From: a virus
Lineage: Duplodnaviria; Heunggongvirae; Uroviricota; Caudoviricetes
Virus record (IMG/VR): IMGVR_UViG_2541047812_000004
Location: 1 to 37,579 of that record
Direction: 5' to 3' (one strand)
DNA length: 37,579 nt
A program made the position numbers and the translations under genes. Of this stretch, positions 1 through 21,608 are shown piece by piece (the first letter of the stretch is position 1; each line of letters begins with the position of its first letter). The notes under the pieces were generated by a model. The model was not told the DNA's origin. It worked only from the letters and a program-made list of their open reading frames with translations, and ran no database searches.

Positions 1-1053
1 TTACGGGGTAATGCCAACCGCTGCCGCCACTTTGTCGCCACTTGGCAGCGTTGCCAGAGGATTGAAACGGAGCGCCGTTTCCAGATGATCCGGTGCCAGA
101 TGTGCGTAACGCATAGTCATTTTTATATCGTGGTGTCCGAGAATTTTTTGTAAGGCCAGAATGTTTCCACCCGACATCATGAAGTGCGCCGCAAACGTAT
201 GGCGCAGAACGTGTGTGAGTTGACCGCGAGGGAGCACGATAGACGTTTTTTCCATCACGGATAAAAATTGAAAATAGCAGTCTGTGAAGAAATTGAACCC
301 ATCAAGCGCCATGATCTCTTCGTAAAGCTCTTTACTGATAGGGATGCTTCTGTTTTTCTTCCCCTTCGTTCTCACAAAGGTGATTCGGTACTTGGTGACC
401 TGTGAGCGGGTAAGATTGATTGCTTCTCGCCAACGTGCGCCTGTACTTAGACATATTTTTACCACCAGTGCCAGAATTGGGTTCTGACGTTTGCAGTCAG
501 ACAGTAATTCGATGATCTGCTCATGTGTAAGCCATGCCATTTCCTTTTCTGCGATAGTGAATTTGCGCATCTTCTCTAATGGGTTTGGAAGTGTCCATTC
601 ACCCAGGCGGGAAAGTTCTCTGAAAACGCTGCTTAGATGGCTTTGCTCCAGGTTAACAGTAACTGGGCTTGCTCCTTTCTTCCATTTTTCACTGAAGTAG
701 ATTTCACCAGTAAGGCGTTTATCTCGATAGTGGGCAAACATTTTAGAGGTGAGATCGGTTGCAAGAGGATTGCCTAGAGCGTCAACCATCAGCAGCAATT
801 TGTCATAGACATGCTGTCCAGCAGTCAGAGATTTACCATGTAGTTTGAACCATAGCTCAACCACGTCTTTCAGGGTTCGACGATCCACTGATTCGCCCAG
901 CCAGGGCTTTGATTCGGTTTCTTCCATCGTGTGACGCTCAAAAGCCAGAGCTTCGCCTTTGGTGGCGAATTGTTTACGCACACGACGCCCACTTCGTCCG
1001 GCGGGGTAACATTCGCAAAGCCATTTCCCTGTGGTGAGTTTTCGTACTGCCAT
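1..1053 (-). CDS. int: Tyrosine integrase (P2 Int-like)
   Basis: Translation carries tyrosine-recombinase catalytic region (LSTGARWREA, HVLRHTFAAH, MTMRYAHL). Start placed at internal ATG 1053-1051 (MAVRKLTTGKW) rather than ORF-track start at 1209; stop at 1-3. Confidence 0.9.
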   Translation of the reverse strand: MAVRKLTTGKWLCECYPAGRSGRRVRKQFATKGEALAFERHTMEETESKPWLGESVDRRTLKDVVELWFKLHGKSLTAGQHVYDKLLLMVDALGNPLATDLTSKMFAHYRDKRLTGEIYFSEKWKKGASPVTVNLEQSHLSSVFRELSRLGEWTLPNPLEKMRKFTIAEKEMAWLTHEQIIELLSDCKRQNPILALVVKICLSTGARWREAINLTRSQVTKYRITFVRTKGKKNRSIPISKELYEEIMALDGFNFFTDCYFQFLSVMEKTSIVLPRGQLTHVLRHTFAAHFMMSGGNILALQKILGHHDIKMTMRYAHLAPDHLETALRFNPLATLPSGDKVAAAVGITP

Positions 1054-1241
1054 AAAAAATGCCCTCCAGTAGAGAGCATTTTTACTGTATATATAACCAG
1101 TGTCAATGTATGAAATCCTACGACCATACATCTCACTGAAGCCATAATGAAGTTGGCTATTCTTTTTGCTATGTGAGCATGTAACTTTTGCGGTTAACCT
1201 GCGGCTCATTTTTATTTTAGACGCAGATATAAAAACAAAAA

Positions 1242-1433
1242 TTATCGTGAGTTTTTAGTACAGATTTTTTTGGATTTACTAATAGTTCCATCATTGCAAA
1301 CGAATTTGCCATCTGAGGTACAGTGAGAAACACCTCCCTTTTTCCCTGAGCAGGGATAATTTCTAGCATAGGTAGTTAGTGGGTTTAATAACAAAGAACA
1401 TGACAAAACCACAAAAAATACCTTACCAAGCAT
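1242..1433 (-). CDS. Small secreted cysteine-rich peptide (63 aa), putative moron/lysogenic-conversion gene
   Basis: ATG at 1433 preceded by strong RBS GGGAGGA (complement of 1438-1444). N-terminal hydrophobic signal-like segment ([23 protein letters not shown]), then Lys-rich region with 4 Cys. AT-rich, 15 bp downstream of the repressor gene on the same strand. Confidence 0.55.
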
Positions 1434-1448: not shown

Positions 1449-2105
1449 CTATTTAACATACTTGACTGTTAAACTTATAATTTTACCAATTATTTCAATG
1501 TCTTCTATCTTGCATTCGAAGACTCTGTTTCCACCCTCGACGAAGATTCTTCCACCGGGTAAACGAGTAATGTCACGGATCGTTATTTCGCCATCAATAC
1601 TTATTACCCATTTACCATCACGTATATCATCAAATTCTTTATCACAAATAAATTCAGAATTGTTATCTGTGATGACAAAAGGTTTTTTAAACGTAGAGGG
1701 TAGAAATCCCTTATCAAAAATATAAAAACCGTCTTTCTGCAATGCTCCATCAGACAATAAATATTTTTCTACTTCTATAGTATTTGTATTTGCTGATGCT
1801 TGCTTTGAACCATGCCCTGTTGTTAGCCAATTAAGCGAGGTGCCCGTTTCAAGGGCGCACTGGATTACCCAATCTGCTGGAAAAATATCACGCATATAGC
1901 GCGTTGCCATGGTGCTCTTAGAAACACCTAAATGATCACAGAGAGCCTGACGAGTACCGAACCCATATGCTTCAACTAAACGTTCTATGGCTTTCTTACC
2001 GCCGCTATTGAAATCCACAAGTCCTCCAAAGAAATCCAAAATTCGTTGACAGATTCCAAAAGCGATCTTAAAGTTGAACCAGAAGTGTTCTTTTGGAGCC
2101 TTCAC
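1449..2105 (-). CDS. CI-like immunity repressor (186 CI type, HTH N-terminal domain)
   Basis: HTH-like segment (QALCDHLGVSKSTMATRYMRD); divergent from cox/apl-cII operon. Start is GTG at 2105 (ORF track shows M); no alternative in-frame ATG upstream of the HTH. No Gly-Ser-Met S24 autocleavage motif seen. Confidence 0.7.
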   Translation of the reverse strand: MKAPKEHFWFNFKIAFGICQRILDFFGGLVDFNSGGKKAIERLVEAYGFGTRQALCDHLGVSKSTMATRYMRDIFPADWVIQCALETGTSLNWLTTGHGSKQASANTNTIEVEKYLLSDGALQKDGFYIFDKGFLPSTFKKPFVITDNNSEFICDKEFDDIRDGKWVISIDGEITIRDITRLPGGRIFVEGGNRVFECKIEDIEIIGKIISLTVKYVK

Positions 2106-2163
2106 TACTAATCACGACAAACAACGGCTCGCCACAAGCCATATCTAGAAGGAATGTTGCCTT

Positions 2164-2367
2164 ATGACACCTAACATTTCAATTACTCTGAATACACCAC
2201 ATGTCACAATCGAACGTTATAGCGAACTGACTGGCCTTTCTATTGATACGATTAACGACATGTTGGCTGATGGCCGACTACCTCGTCATCGTCTTCGTAA
2301 AGACAAAAAACGTGAAAAGGTAATGATTAACCTGGCTGCTCTGACTGTTGATGCTTTGTCTGCTTAA
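2164..2367 (+). CDS. Cox/Apl-like small DNA-binding regulator (excisionase/lytic-switch protein)
   Basis: 67-aa basic ORF, first gene of the rightward early operon divergent from the repressor; position equivalent to P2 cox / 186 apl. Confidence 0.6.
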
Positions 2368-2431
2368 TAGACGTCTATTTTCGCAATAAGACGCTGAGTT
2401 CGATTTTGCGATAAGTTCGGAGTTGAAAACC

Positions 2432-2941
2432 ATGTTTGATTACCAAGTTTCCAAACATCCACATTTTGATGAAGCCTGTCGTGCATTCGCACTGCGCCAC
2501 AATCTGGTGCAACTGGCAGAACGTGCGGGCATGAATGTGCAGATTCTGCGGAACAAGCTGAACCCAGCTCAACCTCATTTATTAACCGCACCAGAAATCT
2601 GGCTGCTTACCGATCTGACTGAAGATTCAACGTTGGTAGATGGTTTTCTGGCACAGATTCATTGTCTGCCATGTGTACCGATTAATGAGGTAGCAAAAGA
2701 GAAACTGCCACATTACGTCATGAGTGCAACCGCAGAGATCGGGCGTGTTGCTGCAGGTGCGGTATCTGGCGATGTAAAAACCAGTGCAGGTCGTCGTGAT
2801 GCTATCAGCAGCATTAACTCTGTAACACGACTGATGGCGCTGGCGGCTGTTTCATTGCAGGCCCGTTTACAGGCTAATCCTGCGATGGCGAGTGCAGTTG
2901 ATACCGTGACTGGCCTCGGTGCTTCATTCGGTTTGCTGTGA
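2432..2941 (+). CDS. cII: CII-like transcriptional activator (phage 186 CII family)
   Basis: Translation [23 protein letters not shown]... closely resembles recalled 186 CII. ATG at 2432 with GGAG about 10 nt upstream; the ORF-track start at 2423 is a TTG. Confidence 0.8.
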
Positions 2942-2948
2942 GGTGCTT

Positions 2949-3245
2949 ATGCTGACGAAAGAACCATCATTTGCATCGCTGCTGGTAAAACAAAGCCCGG
3001 CAATGCACTACGGTCACGGCTGGATCATGGGTGAGGATGGTAAACGCTGGCATCCGTGCCGTTCACAAGATGAATTGCTGTCTGAATTGACCACGGGGAA
3101 ACGGAGAAAGTCAAAATGTATGCAGCGGAAAGTGAAGTGGTTTATCAGTTTCGTTACAGAGGGGAGAGTTATTCAGTACCTGAAGATGATTTGCTCTGTT
3201 GTTATCCGTCGTTGTCGGGCGATGGCAGTTACTTTTTCACGCTAA
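2949..3245 (+). CDS. Hypothetical early protein (extent uncertain; 3' part overlaps next gene)
   Basis: ATG at 2949 with RBS GAGGTG 4 nt upstream, immediately after cII stop. The last ~130 nt overlap the 3116-3340 ORF in another frame, so the true C-terminus is doubtful. Confidence 0.4.
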   Translation: MLTKEPSFASLLVKQSPAMHYGHGWIMGEDGKRWHPCRSQDELLSELTTGKRRKSKCMQRKVKWFISFVTEGRVIQYLKMICSVVIRRCRAMAVTFSR

Positions 3246-4531: not shown

Positions 4532-5385
4532 GCACCATCCTGAAATGGGCGGGTAATAAAACCACCATTATGTCCGAACTGAAAAAATACCTTCCTGCTG
4601 GCACGCGACTGGTTGAACCTTTCGCGGGTTCTTGTGCTGTGATGATGGAGACGGATTACCCCAGCTATCTGGTTGCGGATATTAATCCTGATTTAATCAA
4701 CCTCTATAAAAAGGTTGCTGCTGATTGTGAGGCGTTTATATCTCGTGCCAGAGCTTTATTTGAGGAAGCAAACAGAGAGGTGGCTTATTACAACATAAGG
4801 CAGGAGTTTAATTACTCCACTGAAATTACTGATTTCATGAAAGCGGTATATTTTCTGTATCTCAATCGTCATGGTTACCGTGGGCTATGTCGCTATAACA
4901 AGAGCGGGTATTTCAACATTCCCTACGGTAATTATAAAAATCCGTATTTCCCTGAAAAAGAAATTCGCGCATTTGCAGAGAAAGCCCAGCGGGCAACGTT
5001 TATCTGCGCCAGCTTTGATGAAACGCTGGCGATGTTGAAGGCGGGGGATGTGGTGTATTGCGATCCGCCTTATGACGGTACGTTTTCCGGCTATCACACT
5101 GATGGCTTCACTGAAGATGACCAGTATCACCTGGCATCCGTTCTTGAACATCGATCATCTGAAGGTCATCCGGTCATTGTTTCTAACAGTGACACACCCC
5201 TGATCCGTTCGCTGTATCGCAATTTTACTCACCACTACATCAAGGCAAAACGCAGCATCGGCGTGGCAGCTGGTGAGAGTAAATCTGCAACAGAAATCAT
5301 CGCTGTTTCCGGGCCGCGCTGCTGGGTAGGATTTGATCCTTCGCGTGGCGTGGATTGTTCCGTCGTGTACGGAGTGCGTGCATGA
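4528..5385 (+). CDS. dam: DNA adenine methyltransferase (Dam-like, N6-adenine MTase)
   Basis: Motifs [16 protein letters not shown] and catalytic DPPY ([12 protein letters not shown]). ATG at 4528 overlaps upstream stop. Confidence 0.85.
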
Positions 5386-7796
5386 GCCATGCTGATATGA
5401 ACAACTGCAGCGGCTTTAACGAGGTCGCCGCAGCATTCTCATGGAACAGCCCGAAAAAGGCCATTAACCCTTATCTGGACCCGGCGGAAGTTGCGCCGGT
5501 TTCTGCGCTTTCAAACCTGATCACTCTGTACGCTGCCGATAACGAGCAGGAACAACTGCGCCGCGAGGCACTGAGTGATCAGGTCTGGGAGCGTTATTTC
5601 TTTAATGAATCCCGTGATCCTGTCCAACGCGAAATGGAGCAGGATAAGCTAATTAGCCGGGCAAAGCTGGCGCATGAGCAGCAGCGTTTTAATCCAGACA
5701 TGGCCATTCTGGCGGACGTCAACGCCCAGCCTTCCCATATCAGCAAGCCGCTGATGCAACGTATTAAATACTTCAGCAGCCTGGGCAGGCCAAAGGCTTA
5801 TTCCCGCTATTTGCGTGAGACGATTAAGCCATGCTTGGAACGACTGGAGCATGTACGCGACAGTCAGCTATCCACTTCTTTTCGCTTTATGGCAAGCCAT
5901 GAAGGGCTGGACGGCCTGCTGATCCTGCCTGAAATGAGTCAGGATCAGGTGAAACGCCTGTCCACCTTGGTAGCTGCGCATATGAGCATGTGCCTTGATA
6001 CAGCTTGTGGCGATTTGTATGCCACCGATGATGTTACGCCAGAAGAAATCCGCAAGACATGGGAAAAGGTGGCAGCGGAAACCCTGCGTCTGGATGTTAT
6101 CCCGCCTGCGTTTGAGCAACTCCGTCGGAAAAGAAACCGCCGTAAACCCGTGCCTTATGAACTCATTCCGGGTTCGCTGGCGCGTATGTTATGCGCCGAC
6201 TGGTGGTATCGGAAATTATGGAAGATGCGTTGCGAATGGCGGGAAGAGCAGTTGCGTGCTGTTTGCCTGGTCAGCAAAAAAGCATCTCCCTATGTCAGCT
6301 ATGAAGCCGTGATGCATAAACGTGAGCAGCGCCGTAAGTCGCTGGAGTTTTTCCGTTCTCATGAACTGGTGAACGAAGACGGCGACACGCTGGATATGGA
6401 AGACGTGGTAAACGCCAGCAGCAGCAACCCTGCGCATCGCCGCAATGAGATGATGGCCTGTGTTAAAGGTCTGGAGCTTATCGCGGAAATGCGCGGTGAC
6501 TGCGCCGTTTTCTACACCATCACCTGTCCGTCACGTTTCCATTCCACGCTAAATAACGGCAGGCCCAACCCGACCTGGACAAATGCGACGGTAAGACAAA
6601 GCAGTGATTATCTGGTCGGTATGTTTGCTGCATTTCGTAAGGCGATGCACAAAGCCGGATTACGCTGGTATGGCGTGCGGGTGGCTGAGCCGCATCATGA
6701 CGGTACAGTTCACTGGCACCTGTTGTGTTTTATGCGCAAAAAAGATCGCCGCGCCATTACTGCTTTGTTGCGTAAGTTTGCCATTCGTGAAGACCGCGAG
6801 GAGCTGGGTAATAACACGGAACCACGCTTTAAGTCTGAGCTGATAAACCCGCGCAAAGGTACGCCAACAAGCTACATCGCGAAATACATCAGTAAGAACA
6901 TTGACGGGCGTGGTCTGGCTGGCGAGATCAGCAAGGAAACGGGTAAATCCCTGCGTGATAACGCCGAATACGTTAATGCCTGGGCGTCTCTGCATCGTGT
7001 TCAGCAATTCCGCTTCTTTGGCATTCCGGGGCGTCAGGCTTACCGTGAACTGCGATTGCTGGCTGGTCAGGCGGCAAGGCAACAGGGGGACAAAAAAGCA
7101 GGTGCGCCGGTACTGGATAACCCGCGCCTTGATGCCATCCTGGCTGCCGCTGATGCTGGCTGTTTTGCCACCTACATCATGAAGCAGGGCGGCGTACTGG
7201 TTCCCCGCAAATATCACCTCATCAGAACCGCTTATGAAATCAACGAAGAGCCGACCGCCTATGGCGATCACGGTATTCGTATTTATGGCATCTGGTCACC
7301 CATTGCAGAGGGCAAGATCTGCACTCATGCGGTGAAGTGGAAAATGGTTCGTAAGGCCGTTGACATTCAGGAGGCGGCAGCCGACCAGGGCGCTTGCGCC
7401 CCTTGGACTCGTGGCAATAACTGTCCCCTTGCTGAAAATTTGAACCAACAGGAGAAAGATAAATCAGCTGATGGGGACACCAGAACGGACATTACCCGCA
7501 TGGATGACAAGGAGTTGCACGATTACCTGCACAGTATGAGCAAAAAAGAGCGCCGGGAACTGGCTGCAAGGTTACGCCTGGTGAAACCGAAACGGCGTAA
7601 AGACTACAAACAGCGAATTACAGATCATCAGCGACAGCAGCTCGTTTATGAGCTGAAGTCCAGAGGATTTGATGGCAGCGAGAAAGAGGTCGATTTACTC
7701 CTTCGCGGCGGCAGTATTCCGTCAGGAGCAGGCCTGCGTATCTTCTATCGGAACCAGCGTCTGCAGGAGGATGATAAATGGCGGAACCTGTATTAA
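5382..7796 (+). CDS. A: Replication initiation protein A (rolling-circle HUH endonuclease, P2 gpA-like)
   Basis: HUH-type motif ([10 protein letters not shown]) and active-site tyrosine region ([13 protein letters not shown]). ATG at 5382 overlaps dam stop (ATGA). Confidence 0.85.
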
Positions 7797-7890
7797 TTAC
7801 GCTGGTTAACAATTCGTGCTCTTAATAATACCAGGCATATCAGGCTGATGAGCGTAAAAAAACGTTTTACATCAGTAAGATTATTATATA

Positions 7891-7906
7891 CTGTAAATAT
7901 AAACAG
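7891..7906 (+). promoter_or_regulatory. LexA (SOS) box CTGT-N8-ACAG
   Basis: Sequence ctgtaaatataaacag matches the CTGT-N8-ACAG consensus with AT-rich spacer, 44 bp upstream of the ATG at 7950. Confidence 0.65.
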
Positions 7907-7949
7907 TGGTTATGTGTACAGTATTGCTTGTGGTGTCATAGGAGGAAAA

Positions 7950-8138
7950 ATGCAGGACTATTTTTTGGAGTCTTTGAAGCTCCAGCGCATTGATTTTTTT
8001 CTTAAGCTTGTAGCGGCTAGTGAGTGTAGTGATGAAGAGAAGGGGCTGGCCCTGCAGTGGGTTTCTGAACTGACAGATGAACTCATGGCAAAAATCAGAA
8101 CCCACGAATACAACCGCTCAATGGATGTCATCAGTTGA
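7950..8138 (+). CDS. Small SOS-regulated protein, possible Tum-type antirepressor module
   Basis: ATG at 7950 with GGAGG RBS (7941-7945); directly downstream of the LexA box. Antirepressor function is inferred from position only. Confidence 0.45.
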   Translation: MQDYFLESLKLQRIDFFLKLVAASECSDEEKGLALQWVSELTDELMAKIRTHEYNRSMDVIS

Positions 8139-8148
8139 GGTGACTTTT

Positions 8149-8382
8149 ATGCGCATTGAAATAATGATCGATAAAGAGCAGAAGATTAGCCAGTCTACCC
8201 TGGACGCCCTTGAATCCGAGCTTTACCGCAATCTGCGCCCCCTGTATCCCAAAACGGTAATTCGTATCCGTAAAGGTAGCTCTAACGGTGTGGAACTGAC
8301 CGGACTGCAACTGGATGAAGAAAGAAAACAAGTGATGAAAATTATGCAGAAGGTGTGGGAAGACGACAGCTGGCTGCATTAA
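8149..8382 (+). CDS. DinI-family protein
   Basis: MRIEIMIDKEQ...LDALESEL...KVWEDDSWLH resembles E. coli DinI (MRIEVTIAK...ALAGEL...ETWESADDWF). ATG at 8149 with GAGG RBS. Confidence 0.75.
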   Translation: MRIEIMIDKEQKISQSTLDALESELYRNLRPLYPKTVIRIRKGSSNGVELTGLQLDEERKQVMKIMQKVWEDDSWLH

Positions 8383-8684: not shown

Positions 8685-10763
8685 ATGCTAATTTTAGAAA
8701 CAACATATAAGTTTTTATCCACCTCGTTAAGGCTTTCTATGAGCAGTTTCTTTTATATCCAGCCTGATTTAAAAAATGATACAAATGCTGATTTTTTGAA
8801 CTCTGTTGAAGAGTATGCAAATACTCATCAAATGCAGATTTATGCAATAATGAATCCCTTAGGGGAAAATAAATATAAATATAATAGAGACGATGTTCTT
8901 ATTATATTAAGCCCAGGATACCAATTAGCGTTCGTTGCTTTTAGTGATGATGTTGATGGTATACAAAATTTTATAGAGGATTTTATAGAGGATTTAGGTT
9001 CCTTATCAGATAAATACAATTATAAAGATACAATTGGTAGGCCTCGAGCGTGGAAAGATAAACTTGTTACTGAGTGCTCATACGCTGATTTTAGTTTCGG
9101 TAATCTTGATAAGTTTTTTGATGAAATTAAAATTATTGATGGTGTTCTGGCTAAAAAGAGTGAGTTAATTATCTCTCTCTTAACAGGAAGTATCAATAAT
9201 ATTGATAAAGTTAAAGGCAATGTGCCAGATAATATACTTGACAAGGTTAAGCAAAAGATAATTTTGTTTGACGGAGATCAGACAAGGTTTGTATACCAAA
9301 AATTTGATAAGAAAAAAGTTGTTATTCAAGGATTATCAGGTACTGGTAAGACTGAACTATTGCTTCATAAGTTAAAGGAAATATATTTGGATAAGGAGAA
9401 TTTAAATAGTAAAATAATGTTTACGTGCCATAATAAAATATTGGCAGACAATATGAGAAAGAGAATTCCAGAGTTTTTCAACTTTATGAAGGTCGAGCAG
9501 CAGATTAGCTGGAATGAAAGACTTTGGTGTGTTAATGCATGGGGTTCTCAATATGACGGTAACTCTGGCGCATATAGATATATATGTGAATATTATGGAT
9601 TAAGTTTCTATCGTTTTAGCTATGTGATGACTTTCGATAAAGTATGTAGAATTGCGTTGGATGAACTAAAAAAGTTGCCAAGCAATGAATTTAAGCATTG
9701 CTTTGACTTTATGTTAATAGATGAAAGTCAGGATTTCCCATCAAGCTTCATTGAGCTTTGCGAGCTGGTAACTCGTGATACTATTTATGTTGCTGGTGAT
9801 ATATTTCAAAGTATATTTGATACTAATATCTCTAATGAGATACAGCCAGACTTTCTTCTAAGTAAATGCTACCGAACAGATCCAAGGACATTGATGTTTG
9901 CTCATGGTTTAGGTATGGGGCTATTTGAAGAAGAACCATTAACTTGGTTAATGAATAATGAATGGGAAGCCTGCGGTTATATAGTTGATGAATCGGTAAA
10001 AGGTAAGTTAAGATTAAAGAGAGAGCCACTAAGAAGATTTGAAGATGTAACGGATGCAAAAATACATAGTGTGGAATTAATTAATTCCACATATGAAACT
10101 GAAGAAGAGAATATTTTGGGTATACTCCGTAAAATTAAGGAGGAGAATCCTACTGTTTTGGCTGATGATATTGGTATCATCTTTATTGATCAGGCTAAGA
10201 CTATATTTAAAATCGCAGACAGACTTGAATTGAGCGTGCCTAGATTATTAGGATGGAAGGTTAATAAGGCATATGAAACAAAAGAAAAAATTAAAGACAC
10301 GTTATTCATAAGTAATAAAAACCATGTAAAAGGGTTGGAGTTTCCTTTTGTTATCTGTGTTACTCGTGATATTATCAAGAGCCATTCTTATCGAAATTCA
10401 CTATATATGATGTTAACTCGTTCCTTTATTAAGTCATATTTGCTTCTGGGAGATGGGAATAAAGACTTACAGAATGAGATAGAAAAGGGGTTAGATGCTA
10501 TTAATGAGCATGGTTATATGGATATTAACGTTCCACCGAGAGAAGTCATTTCAAAAATAAGAACAACAATCAAATATGATGAGAAAAATATATCTCATTA
10601 TGATTTGGTTACAAAGGTCTTCGATGACTTACAGATTGAGCCGATATTTCGTACATCCCTGTATAATACAGTAAAAACAATCATGCCTGATTCTTTTGAT
10701 GTCGATAAAATTACTACTCTTGTTCGGTTCAACTATGAAATAATGCTTCAGGAGTCGAAGTGA
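8685..10763 (+). CDS. SF1 (UvrD/Rep-like) helicase-family P-loop NTPase with unknown ~200-aa N-terminal domain; candidate defence protein
   Basis: Helicase motifs read from translation: I GLSGTGKT, II FMLIDESQDF, III VAGDIFQSIF, IV CYRTDPRTL, VI VKGLEFPFVIC. AT-rich. Alternative start ATG 8739 (MSSFFY..., RBS TAAGG) may be the true start. Confidence 0.75.
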   Translation: MLILETTYKFLSTSLRLSMSSFFYIQPDLKNDTNADFLNSVEEYANTHQMQIYAIMNPLGENKYKYNRDDVLIILSPGYQLAFVAFSDDVDGIQNFIEDFIEDLGSLSDKYNYKDTIGRPRAWKDKLVTECSYADFSFGNLDKFFDEIKIIDGVLAKKSELIISLLTGSINNIDKVKGNVPDNILDKVKQKIILFDGDQTRFVYQKFDKKKVVIQGLSGTGKTELLLHKLKEIYLDKENLNSKIMFTCHNKILADNMRKRIPEFFNFMKVEQQISWNERLWCVNAWGSQYDGNSGAYRYICEYYGLSFYRFSYVMTFDKVCRIALDELKKLPSNEFKHCFDFMLIDESQDFPSSFIELCELVTRDTIYVAGDIFQSIFDTNISNEIQPDFLLSKCYRTDPRTLMFAHGLGMGLFEEEPLTWLMNNEWEACGYIVDESVKGKLRLKREPLRRFEDVTDAKIHSVELINSTYETEEENILGILRKIKEENPTVLADDIGIIFIDQAKTIFKIADRLELSVPRLLGWKVNKAYETKEKIKDTLFISNKNHVKGLEFPFVICVTRDIIKSHSYRNSLYMMLTRSFIKSYLLLGDGNKDLQNEIEKGLDAINEHGYMDINVPPREVISKIRTTIKYDEKNISHYDLVTKVFDDLQIEPIFRTSLYNTVKTIMPDSFDVDKITTLVRFNYEIMLQESK

Positions 10764-11389
10764 ATAAAGAGTATTATTTTAGTCTGGAGCAGGCTCAGTG
10801 TGACTGGGCCTTTAAGCCAATACGAACAAAGAAAGATGTTATTGAAATATTGATGAGATTAATCAAACTAATTTCTGTTTATACAGAACCATGCGAACAG
10901 AATGTGGTTGGGAGAGTGAAACTTCATATATCAAAGATGAGTCGAGTTTTCTTCTTTAGTGAAAATAAATATTATTCTCTTGCATTTCCTTTTTTTCTTG
11001 ATGAAATTAATGGTCAGATTTTATTTAGTAGTCCAGAAATGGAGTGTATAGATAGTTTTGTAACATCAAAAGTCATTTCTTTTATTAATGACTCCTCTTA
11101 TTTGAATAGTTCTTCTTGGGCCTTTTTTGAACCATTGTTAAATATTGAAGAACATCAAGGTATTCCCGGGTTTTGGCCTTTTCTTAGAATGTTGTTAACT
11201 TATGAGGATGGTTATATTAGATATGATGTCGATGAAGAAAGGGCTAATGGAAATCGTCATCCATTATATCATTTCGACGTCTTTTATTCTAATCCGCCAA
11301 CGTTTAAAATTGGTTTGAATGCACATTATACAAATGATGAAATGATTGATTTTCTTGATAGGGAAACTGATTGTCGTTATTTGAAATGA
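10760..11389 (+). CDS. Hypothetical protein (209 aa), partner of the helicase-like gene
   Basis: GTG start at 10760 overlaps upstream stop (GTGA) with AGGAG 5 nt upstream; translational coupling. AT-rich; no recognisable motif. Confidence 0.6.
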   Translation: MNKEYYFSLEQAQCDWAFKPIRTKKDVIEILMRLIKLISVYTEPCEQNVVGRVKLHISKMSRVFFFSENKYYSLAFPFFLDEINGQILFSSPEMECIDSFVTSKVISFINDSSYLNSSSWAFFEPLLNIEEHQGIPGFWPFLRMLLTYEDGYIRYDVDEERANGNRHPLYHFDVFYSNPPTFKIGLNAHYTNDEMIDFLDRETDCRYLK

Positions 11390-19853: not shown

Positions 19854-21608
19854 TCAATCCCAAAATAAATTATTATTAATATTGCTCATATCGAAAGTGA
19901 AGTTCTTTTCTGTAATAGTTTCGTACCTTTGTTCATAGATTATTTTTACATATCTAAACCCCTGTGTTACAGAGCGAATTTTTCGGGGTTTTGATGCAAG
20001 CATAACAAGTATTTCAAATACTTTATCAAGATAGTTGTGGGTGTGTTCAACTAAAAGGGGGGTAAATTTACCACCTTTTCCAGAATGGACTATGTTATTT
20101 CTTGTTCTATAAATTCTTCTGAGTTGCCATTCTAATCTTAACTTATGGTTATCTAAAGTTGATTTAATTGACTCCGGGGATGAAACTATGTTTTTTATAT
20201 ACTCGAAACGATCTGAAAGCAATGTGTAATCACGAAATTTAGCGGATAAAGATTCCCTTACTGATTCGTATTCAGGAAGAATCATTATATTGGCTAGTTT
20301 GTGTTTCGCTTTTGCTCCAGGTATTCCTTTTAAATGTGAGTTTAGTATGTGTCTATTCCATAACAGCAGGTCTCGGGTAAGGTTGTCAATTAAGGAGTCT
20401 ATATATGTAATATTCAGGAATGGAATTATACTTGCAGTAATATGTTCTATTGTTGCTTGATCCTTGGATTTAGTGTCTGTCGGCACTAATGATTCAAGAG
20501 CTATCCATAGATTTAAAAGCTGATTTTCAACATTTTCACTTTTTAATGCCATTGAATGTAATTGAATACTTCTCAAGAACTTGGCAAATGAACTATTTTC
20601 TAGAGAAAACTCAGACATCAATGATTCAAGACGTTTCTTGGCCTTTTCATGCTTTAAGTCCTTGCATTTTTTCATGGGGTTAAGTCTTTCAGCCACTTTC
20701 AAAGAGTCTGTATCAGTTATAACGAAAGCTTCATTTGACCAAGTAGGTTTATCTTTATGATGATAAATATTTAAAAAGGATGATGCTAATTTAAGTAGGT
20801 TTTCAGCATTCTCTCTTGCTGAATAAGAATCAAAAGCTTCTATATTTGATACGCAAACTATCTTCTTTCGTTGCAGATTTCTAAAAAAAACATGTTGGGA
20901 AAATTCTTCTGGTGGTTCTTTCTCAACAGACAAAGAGAGTCTTTCGAAAGTTGGCTCTGCGCCTAAAAACACTGGTTCAACAATAAAATATATTTTGTAT
21001 TTCTTTTTTTCGAGTTTTATTAAATCAAAAAAAGAAGAGACATCAGTGTTATTTGATATTTTATTATTCCCATAATAAAAAAATTGCTGGGTTAAATTCT
21101 TAAGATTATGTTGGCTAAAGCCAATGTAGAGTAATAAACTGATATAATTTCTTGTTAGCTTGCGTATGATGCTTCTTTCCCAGTTAGGGGATGATAACTC
21201 TTGGGTGATAAGTTCTTCACTTTTTTCTTTATATAATTTGGGTGGTAATTGAATGACCAGCATTTCAATTATTGAGCTTCTCTCTTTAGGGCTTATGTTA
21301 GTATTTTTTAGTTTGTTGAGAAAAGCTTGGTAAGCATCGCCTAATAAATCTTGTGCTACTTTATCACATGACAAGTTATGTATTAATTCTGCGGTTAAAT
21401 GTTCAATATTTTTAGGCTGAATAATACCATCCTCAACATCTTTAATTGTATTTAAAGTTTCTACTCCAATTGTTGGGGTATTCATCACTGAGGGTTTGTA
21501 TGTGTCCAGTGTATAGTCAAATAGCATTTCATCCAGTAATTGCGCAAAATATACTAGTGCTTTACAAGTGTCTGGGCAATCCCATTTATACAAAGAACGA
21601 AATTTCAT
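19854..21608 (-). CDS. Large AT-rich cargo protein (584 aa) with C-terminal HEPN-like Rx4-6H motif; candidate abortive-infection/defence protein
   Basis: Uninterrupted 584-codon ORF, ATG at 21608, opposite strand to flanking S and V, in the P2 orf30 position. C-terminal segment RRIYRTRNNIVHSG fits the HEPN Rx4-6H signature. Confidence 0.7.
   Translation of the reverse strand: MKFRSLYKWDCPDTCKALVYFAQLLDEMLFDYTLDTYKPSVMNTPTIGVETLNTIKDVEDGIIQPKNIEHLTAELIHNLSCDKVAQDLLGDAYQAFLNKLKNTNISPKERSSIIEMLVIQLPPKLYKEKSEELITQELSSPNWERSIIRKLTRNYISLLLYIGFSQHNLKNLTQQFFYYGNNKISNNTDVSSFFDLIKLEKKKYKIYFIVEPVFLGAEPTFERLSLSVEKEPPEEFSQHVFFRNLQRKKIVCVSNIEAFDSYSARENAENLLKLASSFLNIYHHKDKPTWSNEAFVITDTDSLKVAERLNPMKKCKDLKHEKAKKRLESLMSEFSLENSSFAKFLRSIQLHSMALKSENVENQLLNLWIALESLVPTDTKSKDQATIEHITASIIPFLNITYIDSLIDNLTRDLLLWNRHILNSHLKGIPGAKAKHKLANIMILPEYESVRESLSAKFRDYTLLSDRFEYIKNIVSSPESIKSTLDNHKLRLEWQLRRIYRTRNNIVHSGKGGKFTPLLVEHTHNYLDKVFEILVMLASKPRKIRSVTQGFRYVKIIYEQRYETITEKNFTFDMSNINNNLFWD

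Follow-up and report, generated by a model that had tools for sequence, protein, structure and literature searches.

The repressor CI of the P2/186-like prophage described here is very probably a 186-type protein that does not cleave itself and is switched off indirectly, through a LexA-controlled TumA-like antirepressor encoded about 6 kb away. Antirepressor-mediated induction represents the best-supported and most likely mechanism, because the module at 7.9 kb of the window (the whole 37,579-nt stretch of DNA that was analysed) is homologous to the p95-tum operon of coliphage 186. The protein encoded at 1449-2018 is assigned on its sequence to the 186 CI family of immunity repressors, and sequence comparison confirmed that it has no LexA-type Ser-Lys autocleavage apparatus, while its modelled C-terminal domain keeps a LexA-like fold. 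It represents an uncharacterised immunity type of a known family. No new principle is involved, as the split tumA/tumB operon and the dyad-less S24-like fold of 186 CI are already documented and the mechanism proposed here is already established for 186 and its relatives. The chief value of the analysis lies in the correct annotation of a 189-aa repressor starting at GTG 2018. Of 5,426 complete E. coli genomes, 152 (~3%) contain the operator and N-terminal region that mark this immunity type.

The immunity region and the start of cI

The repressor locus sits in the immunity region of a P2/186-like prophage, a region with the same gene-by-gene layout as the annotated record of coliphage 186. 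The cI and int genes run leftward, and apl and cII run rightward from a promoter adjoining the cI start. The genes concerned are as follows.

1-1209, minus strand: int, integrase
1242-1433, minus strand: 63-aa open reading frame between cI and int
1449..2018, minus strand: cI, corrected model of 189 aa, with GTG start at 2018-2016 and stop at 1451-1449
2164..2367, plus strand: apl/cox-like excisionase-repressor gene (phrog_575, E 1e-29), in the position of 186 apl
2423-2941, plus strand: cII, 186-type
5355-7796, plus strand: replicase A gene

[quoted passage not shown] Megablast matches in the phage collection covered int (1-1131) and apl-cII (2113-3000) only, and the cI segment had no near DNA match there. 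Near-identical cI genes are present in E. coli chromosomes, in which they are annotated as 'phage repressor protein CI'.

The first-pass annotation gave the repressor 218 aa, and a frame of 218 codons is indeed open on the minus strand from a GTG at 2105 to the stop at 1449. This gene model is nevertheless judged to be wrong. The true start is placed at GTG 2018, since five independent lines of evidence converge on this codon, and the product is accordingly 189 aa long. In most homologues, Met1 aligns to the V30 codon of the 218-aa frame (e.g., 'MDFNNGGKK...' and 'MNLEKGG...'), and the N-terminus of 186 CI lies no more than 3 residues from the GTG-2018 position. NCBI annotates the protein with 189 aa in identical E. 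coli prophages, RefSeq lists 570 nt in E. coli C51, and RefSeq calls in four E. coli prophages range from 187 to 191 aa. Among relatives, the codon in the column at 2018 is GTG, ATG or TTG, each of them a start codon. Before it stands a Shine-Dalgarno sequence that is kept across 7 relatives as GGAGG, once as GGAGT. Moreover, a seven-sequence DNA alignment places a coding signature exactly here: variable sites at the first, second and third codon positions number 6/5/48 of 58 in the gene body 3' of 2018 and 6/4/4 of 29 in the 87 nt of 2019-2105, so that the third-position variation typical of the gene body sets in at 2018. The elements found upstream of this start are listed below.

2023..2027, minus strand: Shine-Dalgarno sequence GGAGG, 4 nt 5' of GTG 2018, read from the sequence
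2019..2105, minus strand: 29-codon N-terminal extension, considered spurious, with no third-position bias, a frame-breaking indel in one relative and several invariant blocks
2046..2074, plus strand: pR-like lytic promoter TTGACA-17-TAAAGT, directed towards apl (consensus scan, 10/12)
2035 (plus), 2055 (plus) and 2091 (minus), cluster 2035..2097: three TCCAAAA heptamers within tandem 21-nt units, in invariant blocks

The segment 2019..2105 is read as conserved DNA that does not code for protein and holds the pR-like promoter along with candidate operators. The promoter lies in a block that is 100% conserved among relatives, and its position relative to the cI start is that of 186 pR. TCCAAAA occurs 5 times in the whole window, 3 of these copies being at 2035..2097, and these heptamers may serve as CI half-sites over pR. 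A pL proposed by analogy with 186 at ~2182-2154 on the minus strand (TTGAAA-17-CAACAT) was a poor match and is not claimed.

It is very unlikely that the 218-aa form initiated at GTG 2105 is a real product or a second isoform, with a functional extension and an expression limited by a weak ribosome-binding site. The frame open from 2105 has an open equivalent in 6 of the 7 sequences (the window included), relatives also keep the GTG at 2105, lengths of 212-218 aa are annotated by JGI and in some NCBI records, and by analogy with 186 a pL transcript should include the extension. However, the extension shows the codon-position pattern given above instead of a third-position bias, and both the -35 and the -10 of the pR-like promoter lie within it on the opposite strand. 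One relative (L004) has lost 1 nt of the extension, which puts the upstream GTG out of frame with the gene, and has an ATG at the V30 column. Furthermore, 2105 has no Shine-Dalgarno sequence before it whereas 2018 has GGAGG, and 186 CI, most homologues and the RefSeq calls all start at the equivalent of 2018. The earlier argument that a GTG start with a weak Shine-Dalgarno sequence may limit repressor expression consequently fails, because it was based on the wrong codon; the real GTG follows a strong GGAGG.

Domain fold and autocleavage residues of CI

The corrected protein consists of two domains typical of the 186 CI family. Their positions, together with that of the residue facing the catalytic lysine of the S24 peptidases, are given below.

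1803..1991, minus strand: N-terminal HTH DNA-binding domain, Phage_CI_repr (PF07022, E 3.3e-31)
1476..1772, minus strand: C-terminal oligomerisation domain (CTD), Phage_CI_C (PF16452, E 8.8e-29)
1575..1577, minus strand: codon of Arg148, aligned by hhalign with catalytic Lys156 of LexA and Lys192 of lambda CI

The PF07022 match bears out the N-terminal HTH that had been claimed for the repressor. CI matches the solved 186 CI structure 2FJR with an E-value of 2.8e-31 and is 33% identical to 186 CI over 175 residues. Residues R13, L26, R43, P47, W64, L65, G135 and P154 are near-invariant among 56 homologues. An AlphaFold2 model built on these homologues has a mean pLDDT of 91, with an N-terminal domain of five predicted helices (pLDDT >90). 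The predicted CTD superimposes on 2FKD, the CTD of 186 CI, with a target-normalised TM-score of 0.93 and an rmsd of 1.6 A (Foldseek). In the same kind of search against the PDB, the CTD also matched T. maritima LexA (E 5e-7, probability ~1.00) as well as E. coli LexA, the lambda CI CTD and UmuD' (E 1e-4 to 1e-2, probability ~1.00); beyond the 186 CI entries, every significant match was LexA, the lambda CI CTD or UmuD'. This result agrees with the literature, in which the 186 CI monomer is described as folding very much like that of lambda CI (PMC2995052). In profile comparison, the CI family aligned over 97 columns with a 3-sequence S24 mini-profile (hhalign E 1.9e-4, probability 48%), in which the LexA and lambda CI sequences, though not that of UmuD, were validated by their Pfam scores. 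Against single LexA or lambda CI sequences, the probabilities were low (4.7% and 0.2%). The modelled CTD thereby appears as a catalytically dead relative of the S24 fold that is used for oligomerisation, and not as an unrelated domain. Its S24-like fold explains both the weak Pfam S24 match and the generic 'peptidase S24' name in databases. One source names the 218-aa form 'phage repressor protein C with HTH and peptidase S24 domain', which is a generic COG label.

The catalytic elements themselves were sought by profile, motif and alignment. With PF00717 (Peptidase_S24), CI scored 15 bits (E 0.02), below the gathering score of 23.3; the sub-threshold match covers only profile positions 56-116, the C-terminal half, and no S24 domain with an intact dyad was detected. 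The positive controls LexA and lambda CI scored 125.5 and 100.4 bits with the same library, and 186 CI gave no PF00717 match in the same scan. The Ala-Gly cleavage site had been reported as absent, and no AG or CG dipeptide occurs anywhere in the 189-aa protein; as the absence of AG from ~190 residues is not unusual alone, the weight rests on the profile, alignment and fold evidence. The linker likewise contains no conserved column in the 56-sequence alignment. The reported absence of a Gly-Ser-Met motif and of the catalytic dyad also stands: CI contains no G-S-M motif, and among the 56 homologues neither Ser nor Lys is conserved at any position of the CTD. The highest Ser column reaches 59% and holds Thr146 in the present CI, and the highest Lys column, that of K179 in the final strand, reaches 57%. 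The catalytic Lys fell reproducibly, in three independent hhalign runs (LexA, lambda CI and the 3-sequence S24 profile), on Arg148, whose column is variable across the family (R24, N9, Y7, K5, S5, others) and is therefore not under catalytic constraint. The LexA segment 'SGMSMKDIGI', which carries Ser119, falls in or beside a 9-residue gap. Ser119 itself stands opposite the gap or opposite Lys111, a variable column, with an uncertain register at this point and a gap that differs between alignments.

Homologue searches point in the same direction. A phmmer search of 1.84 billion representative proteins returned 298 relatives only. The S24 family is very large, so these are too few for that family to have been reached. 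In a separate homologue search, PF00717 was absent from the CI relatives listed with precomputed Pfam domains. The first-pass view that no S24 character is recognisable thus stands for the motifs and needs amending for the fold, which resembles LexA, lambda CI and UmuD' and is accompanied by a sub-threshold S24 profile match.

The same fold and profile match, along with the 'peptidase S24 domain' in one source's protein name, are what could be adduced for a cryptic S24-type autoprotease in the CTD, triggered by RecA* and working with non-canonical residues such as Thr146 or another hydroxyl paired with Arg148 or Lys179. Such an activity is considered extremely improbable. It would have to operate in a protein with no cleavage-site dipeptide and with the Ser-bearing segment deleted or unmatched, on a Lys-equivalent column that is R, N, Y, K or S among relatives, and the database name is the generic label mentioned above. 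Additionally, Shearwin et al. are said to have found in 1998 that Tum inactivates 186 CI reversibly and not by cleavage. The 'peptidase S24' label, a generic name that some pipelines apply, should not be used for this CI.

The SOS module at 7.9 kb and the route of induction

The second component of the proposed switch lies 3' of the replicase A gene. It is interpreted from its sequence as homologous to the SOS operon p95-tum of 186, with tum split into tumA and tumB as in PSP3 and Fels-2, and has the following parts.

7889..7908, plus strand: LexA box TACTGTAAATATAAACAGTG, upstream of the SOS operon
7950..8138, plus strand: tumA-like gene, 62 aa, putative antirepressor, with AGGAGG before the ATG (phrog_698, E 3.6e-38)
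8149..8382, plus strand: tumB/DinI-like gene, 77 aa (phrog_189, E 1.5e-29)

The pattern CTGT-N8-ACAG has a single match in the window, inside TACTGTAAATATAAACAGTG. When this site is aligned with those of 186 p95, PSP3 and three prophages, TACTGT...ACAGT does not vary, and the equivalent site is annotated as a LexA site in the 186 record. A strict scan found no sigma-70 promoter at the box; on our own reading, TTTACA (7866-7871) with a short spacer to TATACT may be the promoter there.

Tum is a LexA-controlled antirepressor that binds 186 CI, blocks its operator binding and sequesters it (PMC3121763, PMC7708051). PSP3 and Fels-2 have tum as two separate genes, the antirepressor gene first and a dinI homologue behind it (PMC3121763; also PMC7708051, PMC5322425), the role of the upstream half as antirepressor resting on a personal communication cited in PMC3121763. 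The PSP3 record annotates tumA with 'UV induction of prophage' and also contains tumB. The 62-aa protein of the window is likely homologous to the N-terminal half of Tum. BLASTP gave no similarity of this protein to 186 Tum or PSP3 TumA, and a modest relationship emerges at the profile level only: residues 1-70 of 186 Tum match phrog_698 at E 5.9e-6, both proteins match phrog_8554 and phrog_1993 (the PSP3 TumA family), and hhalign aligned the family of the 62-aa protein with 186 Tum over columns 3-43 to 3-43 (E 1.3e-4, probability 54%). TumB shares 78% identity with its PSP3 counterpart and 41% with residues 71-145 of 186 Tum, the C-terminal half of that protein. The related prophages L010 and L011 have the tumA-like gene, and a DinI-like gene was undetected in them, which suggests that TumB is dispensable for the task of the module.

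Together, these elements suggest the following course of induction. In the lysogen, the N-terminal HTH of CI would bind operators that overlie the rightward lytic promoter between cI and apl, and the CTD would form a wheel, as in 186. RecA* should be unable to trigger CI self-cleavage, because CI has no cleavage site, no Ser as nucleophile and no Lys as general base. DNA damage would lead to LexA cleavage and de-repress the promoter at ~7.87-7.91 kb. By analogy with 186 and PSP3, the 62-aa TumA-like protein would then be made, bind CI reversibly and inactivate it, so that CI leaves its operators and the rightward promoter is de-repressed by the sequestration. The co-transcribed DinI-like TumB probably modulates RecA filaments. 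A fit with the antirepressor strategy of 186 and a tie to the LexA-boxed module had both been put forward by the first-pass annotation; the former is supported by a 186-type CI without the dyad and a p95-tum homologue, and the latter by the invariant LexA box, the DinI-like gene and the probable TumA homology at profile level.

Alternatively, the repressor could be 186-like in a prophage that the SOS response does not induce via the 7.9-kb module, the 62-aa frame having another role or target and the prophage behaving like the non-inducible P2 or answering another signal. This is unlikely. The homology of the 62-aa frame to the Tum N-terminal half is at profile level only, and it is called hypothetical in all database entries, but the gene occupies the exact position of tum, 3' of replicase A and directly behind an invariant LexA box. 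It is followed by the DinI-like half, and its product aligns with the N-terminus of Tum in register from residue 3. A further point in favour of the alternative is that TumA is 98-100% identical beside CI proteins whose CTDs are 30-45% identical, which would be surprising if the CTD were the target; the N-terminal domain, 84-96% conserved in these prophages, is however an equally plausible target of TumA.

This last point derives from a comparison of eight prophages with a common operator region. Their CI N-terminal domains are 84-96% identical and the rest of the early region 76-100%, whereas the CTDs fall into at least six types with a mutual identity of 26-46%. TumA is 98-100% identical across four of these CTD types. 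In the relatives L010 and L011, the CTD is 36% and TumA 47% identical on a backbone of 80-96%. A co-variation of TumA with the CTD, as expected of a CTD target, was considered and rejected: L010 and L011 fitted it, and three E. coli prophages refuted it, with CTDs at 33-52% and TumA at 98-100%. If TumA is the antirepressor, its constancy beside diverged CTDs makes the conserved N-terminal domain the more likely target. At the loci with an examined flank, the CTD type varies in step with the cargo gene that separates cI from int. This gene is variable, encodes a KAP NTPase, a HEPN-like protein or 355/357-aa proteins, and is represented in the window only by the 63-aa frame. Such a pattern points to an exchange of cassettes that have one of their ends within cI. 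A broader reading can be offered only tentatively and is rather doubtful: the CTD would be an exchangeable, hypervariable cassette, TumA would recognise the conserved N-terminal domain, and other forces would drive the diversification of the CTD. If it is true, these could include the need to keep repressor wheels unmixed, evasion of the CTD-decoy inducers made by competing elements, and hitch-hiking with the variable defence cargo between cI and int. The hypervariability of the CTD against a constant N-terminal domain, constant operators and a constant TumA is the one point that could be worth further work.

For the induction of this prophage type, the preferred model runs from LexA through TumA to the sequestration of CI, a reversible and titratable process, and irreversible RecA-stimulated cleavage would be the wrong model. 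Such reversible sequestration affects predictions of induction thresholds and of cross-talk among co-resident prophages.

Comparison with known switches

Coliphage 186 is the closest known system. Its CI has the same Phage_CI_repr and Phage_CI_C domains, no Ser-Lys dyad, and a cI gene that together with int faces apl-cII. The operator region of 186 has no DNA similarity to that of the window, which indicates a different immunity type. The cI start is a GTG behind GGAGG in the window and an ATG behind a poor Shine-Dalgarno sequence in 186, the proteins have 189 and 192 aa, respectively, and the window differs from 186 in the small 63-aa frame between cI and int. 186 CI forms a heptamer-of-dimers wheel and acts at three pR operators and the flanking sites FL and FR; the corresponding hints in the window are the TCCAAAA cluster and the 21-nt units. 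In PSP3 and 186 p95, an invariant LexA box stands directly upstream, as in the window. In PSP3, as probably in the window, a small homologue of the N-terminal half of Tum precedes a separate DinI-like gene, whereas tum is fused in 186 (PMC3121763). The 62-aa protein of the window belongs to PHROG 698 and PSP3 TumA to PHROG 1993. After tumB, the window lacks an orf97 homologue and carries low-GC helicase cargo instead.

LexA, lambda CI and UmuD (S24, PF00717) share with CI the arrangement of an N-terminal DNA-binding domain and a C-terminal beta domain, as well as the fold. CI also aligns with them at the strand motif 'D-G/D-E-x-T-x-[KR]-x-L' and at the terminal 'G-K-V/I' strand. In contrast to these proteins, CI would be inactivated by an antirepressor, by analogy with 186, and not by RecA*-stimulated self-cleavage. 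The same logic of an uncleavable repressor and a LexA-controlled antirepressor outside the immunity region is found in the Gifsy prophages (dinI-gfoA) and in N15 AntC (PMC3121763). In these systems, a dinI homologue is co-transcribed with the antirepressor, as in the window (PMC3121763). In Gifsy, however, dinI comes first, the reverse of the order in the window, and the repressors and antirepressors are from unrelated families. The C repressor of P2, from the related P2-like phages, is also not cleaved by RecA* (PMC5322425, PMC2995052). It is half the size of 186 CI, has no sequence similarity to it, and is associated with no SOS antirepressor (PMC2995052), which is why P2 is non-inducible (PMC2995052). 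The switch of the window is of the 186 type and not of the P2 type.

Possible exchange within the immunity region

The C-terminal domain of CI is hypervariable among the window and the related prophage loci L006 and L010–L015, comprising at least six types with 26–46% identity between types. The following intervals were compared with these loci:

1449–1781, (−), C-terminal domain of CI
1210–1448, interval between cI and int

In prophages carrying divergent C-terminal domains, the N-terminal domain of CI is 84–96% identical, and the operators, Apl, CII, and TumA are almost unchanged. In the loci with the flank examined, the type of C-terminal domain tracks a variable cargo gene sitting between cI and int, which encodes a KAP NTPase, a HEPN-like protein, or proteins of 355/357 aa. 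The same interval of the window holds a 63-aa ORF only, with no larger cargo gene. Together with cI, this ORF is AT-rich (38% GC at 1001–2000), compared with 48% in int and 46–53% in the early operon; this low GC content agrees with the immunity cassette having been exchanged horizontally.

Length is a further source of diversity, as many CI relatives (P0009–P0028 and others) have 286–327 aa. One of them is encoded by the phage PSP3:

L002 1219–2079, cI of PSP3, product of 286 aa

According to Pfam, PSP3 CI has two Phage_CI_repr HTH stretches followed by one C-terminal domain. The query matches the other long forms in a second stretch that begins near their residue 94–131, behind about 100 additional N-terminal residues.

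SOS module and low-GC islands

Two enterobacterial prophages sharing the immunity N-terminal domain of the window carry a tumA-like gene (47% identical) behind the same LexA box:

L010 5424–5603, tumA-like gene
L011 4865–5050, tumA-like gene

A DinI-like tumB is not detectable in either locus, and thus the SOS module can dispense with the DinI half.

The window also contains two low-GC islands:

8685–11389, 33% GC, directly 3′ of tumB
19854–21608, (−), 33–40% GC, inside the late region

The first encodes a 692-aa superfamily-1 helicase of UvrD/GajB-like type, whose N-terminal half is novel, as well as an overlapping 209-aa ORF without a match in Pfam or PADLOC. The island probably represents cargo for defence against phages, at an established P2/186 hotspot where relatives have different cargo (DndB-like, reverse transcriptase, PIN, GmrSD). 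Coliphage 186 has orf97 at this position. The second island encodes a 584-aa ORF with no Pfam match, possibly another cargo or defence gene.

Leader hairpin and candidate operators

The leader of cI contains an invariant hairpin, kept in all seven aligned relatives. It lies downstream of the predicted pL and ahead of the cI start, and may serve as an attenuator or as a binding region for Apl:

2124–2142, (−), GC-rich hairpin GGCTTGTGGCGAGCC, then a T-rich run

The heptamer TCCAAAA occurs five times in the 37.6-kb window, and three copies cluster over the pR-like promoter:

2035 (+), 2055 (+), and 2091 (−), TCCAAAA heptamers
1671–1691, weaker look-alikes, some 380 bp leftward
2423–2432, weaker look-alikes, some 415 bp rightward, at the cII start

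The clustered copies (2035–2097) lie within three tandem 21-nt units (interval 2010–2072), in blocks 100% conserved among relatives, and are candidate CI half-sites. The weaker flanking look-alikes recall the FL and FR sites of coliphage 186.
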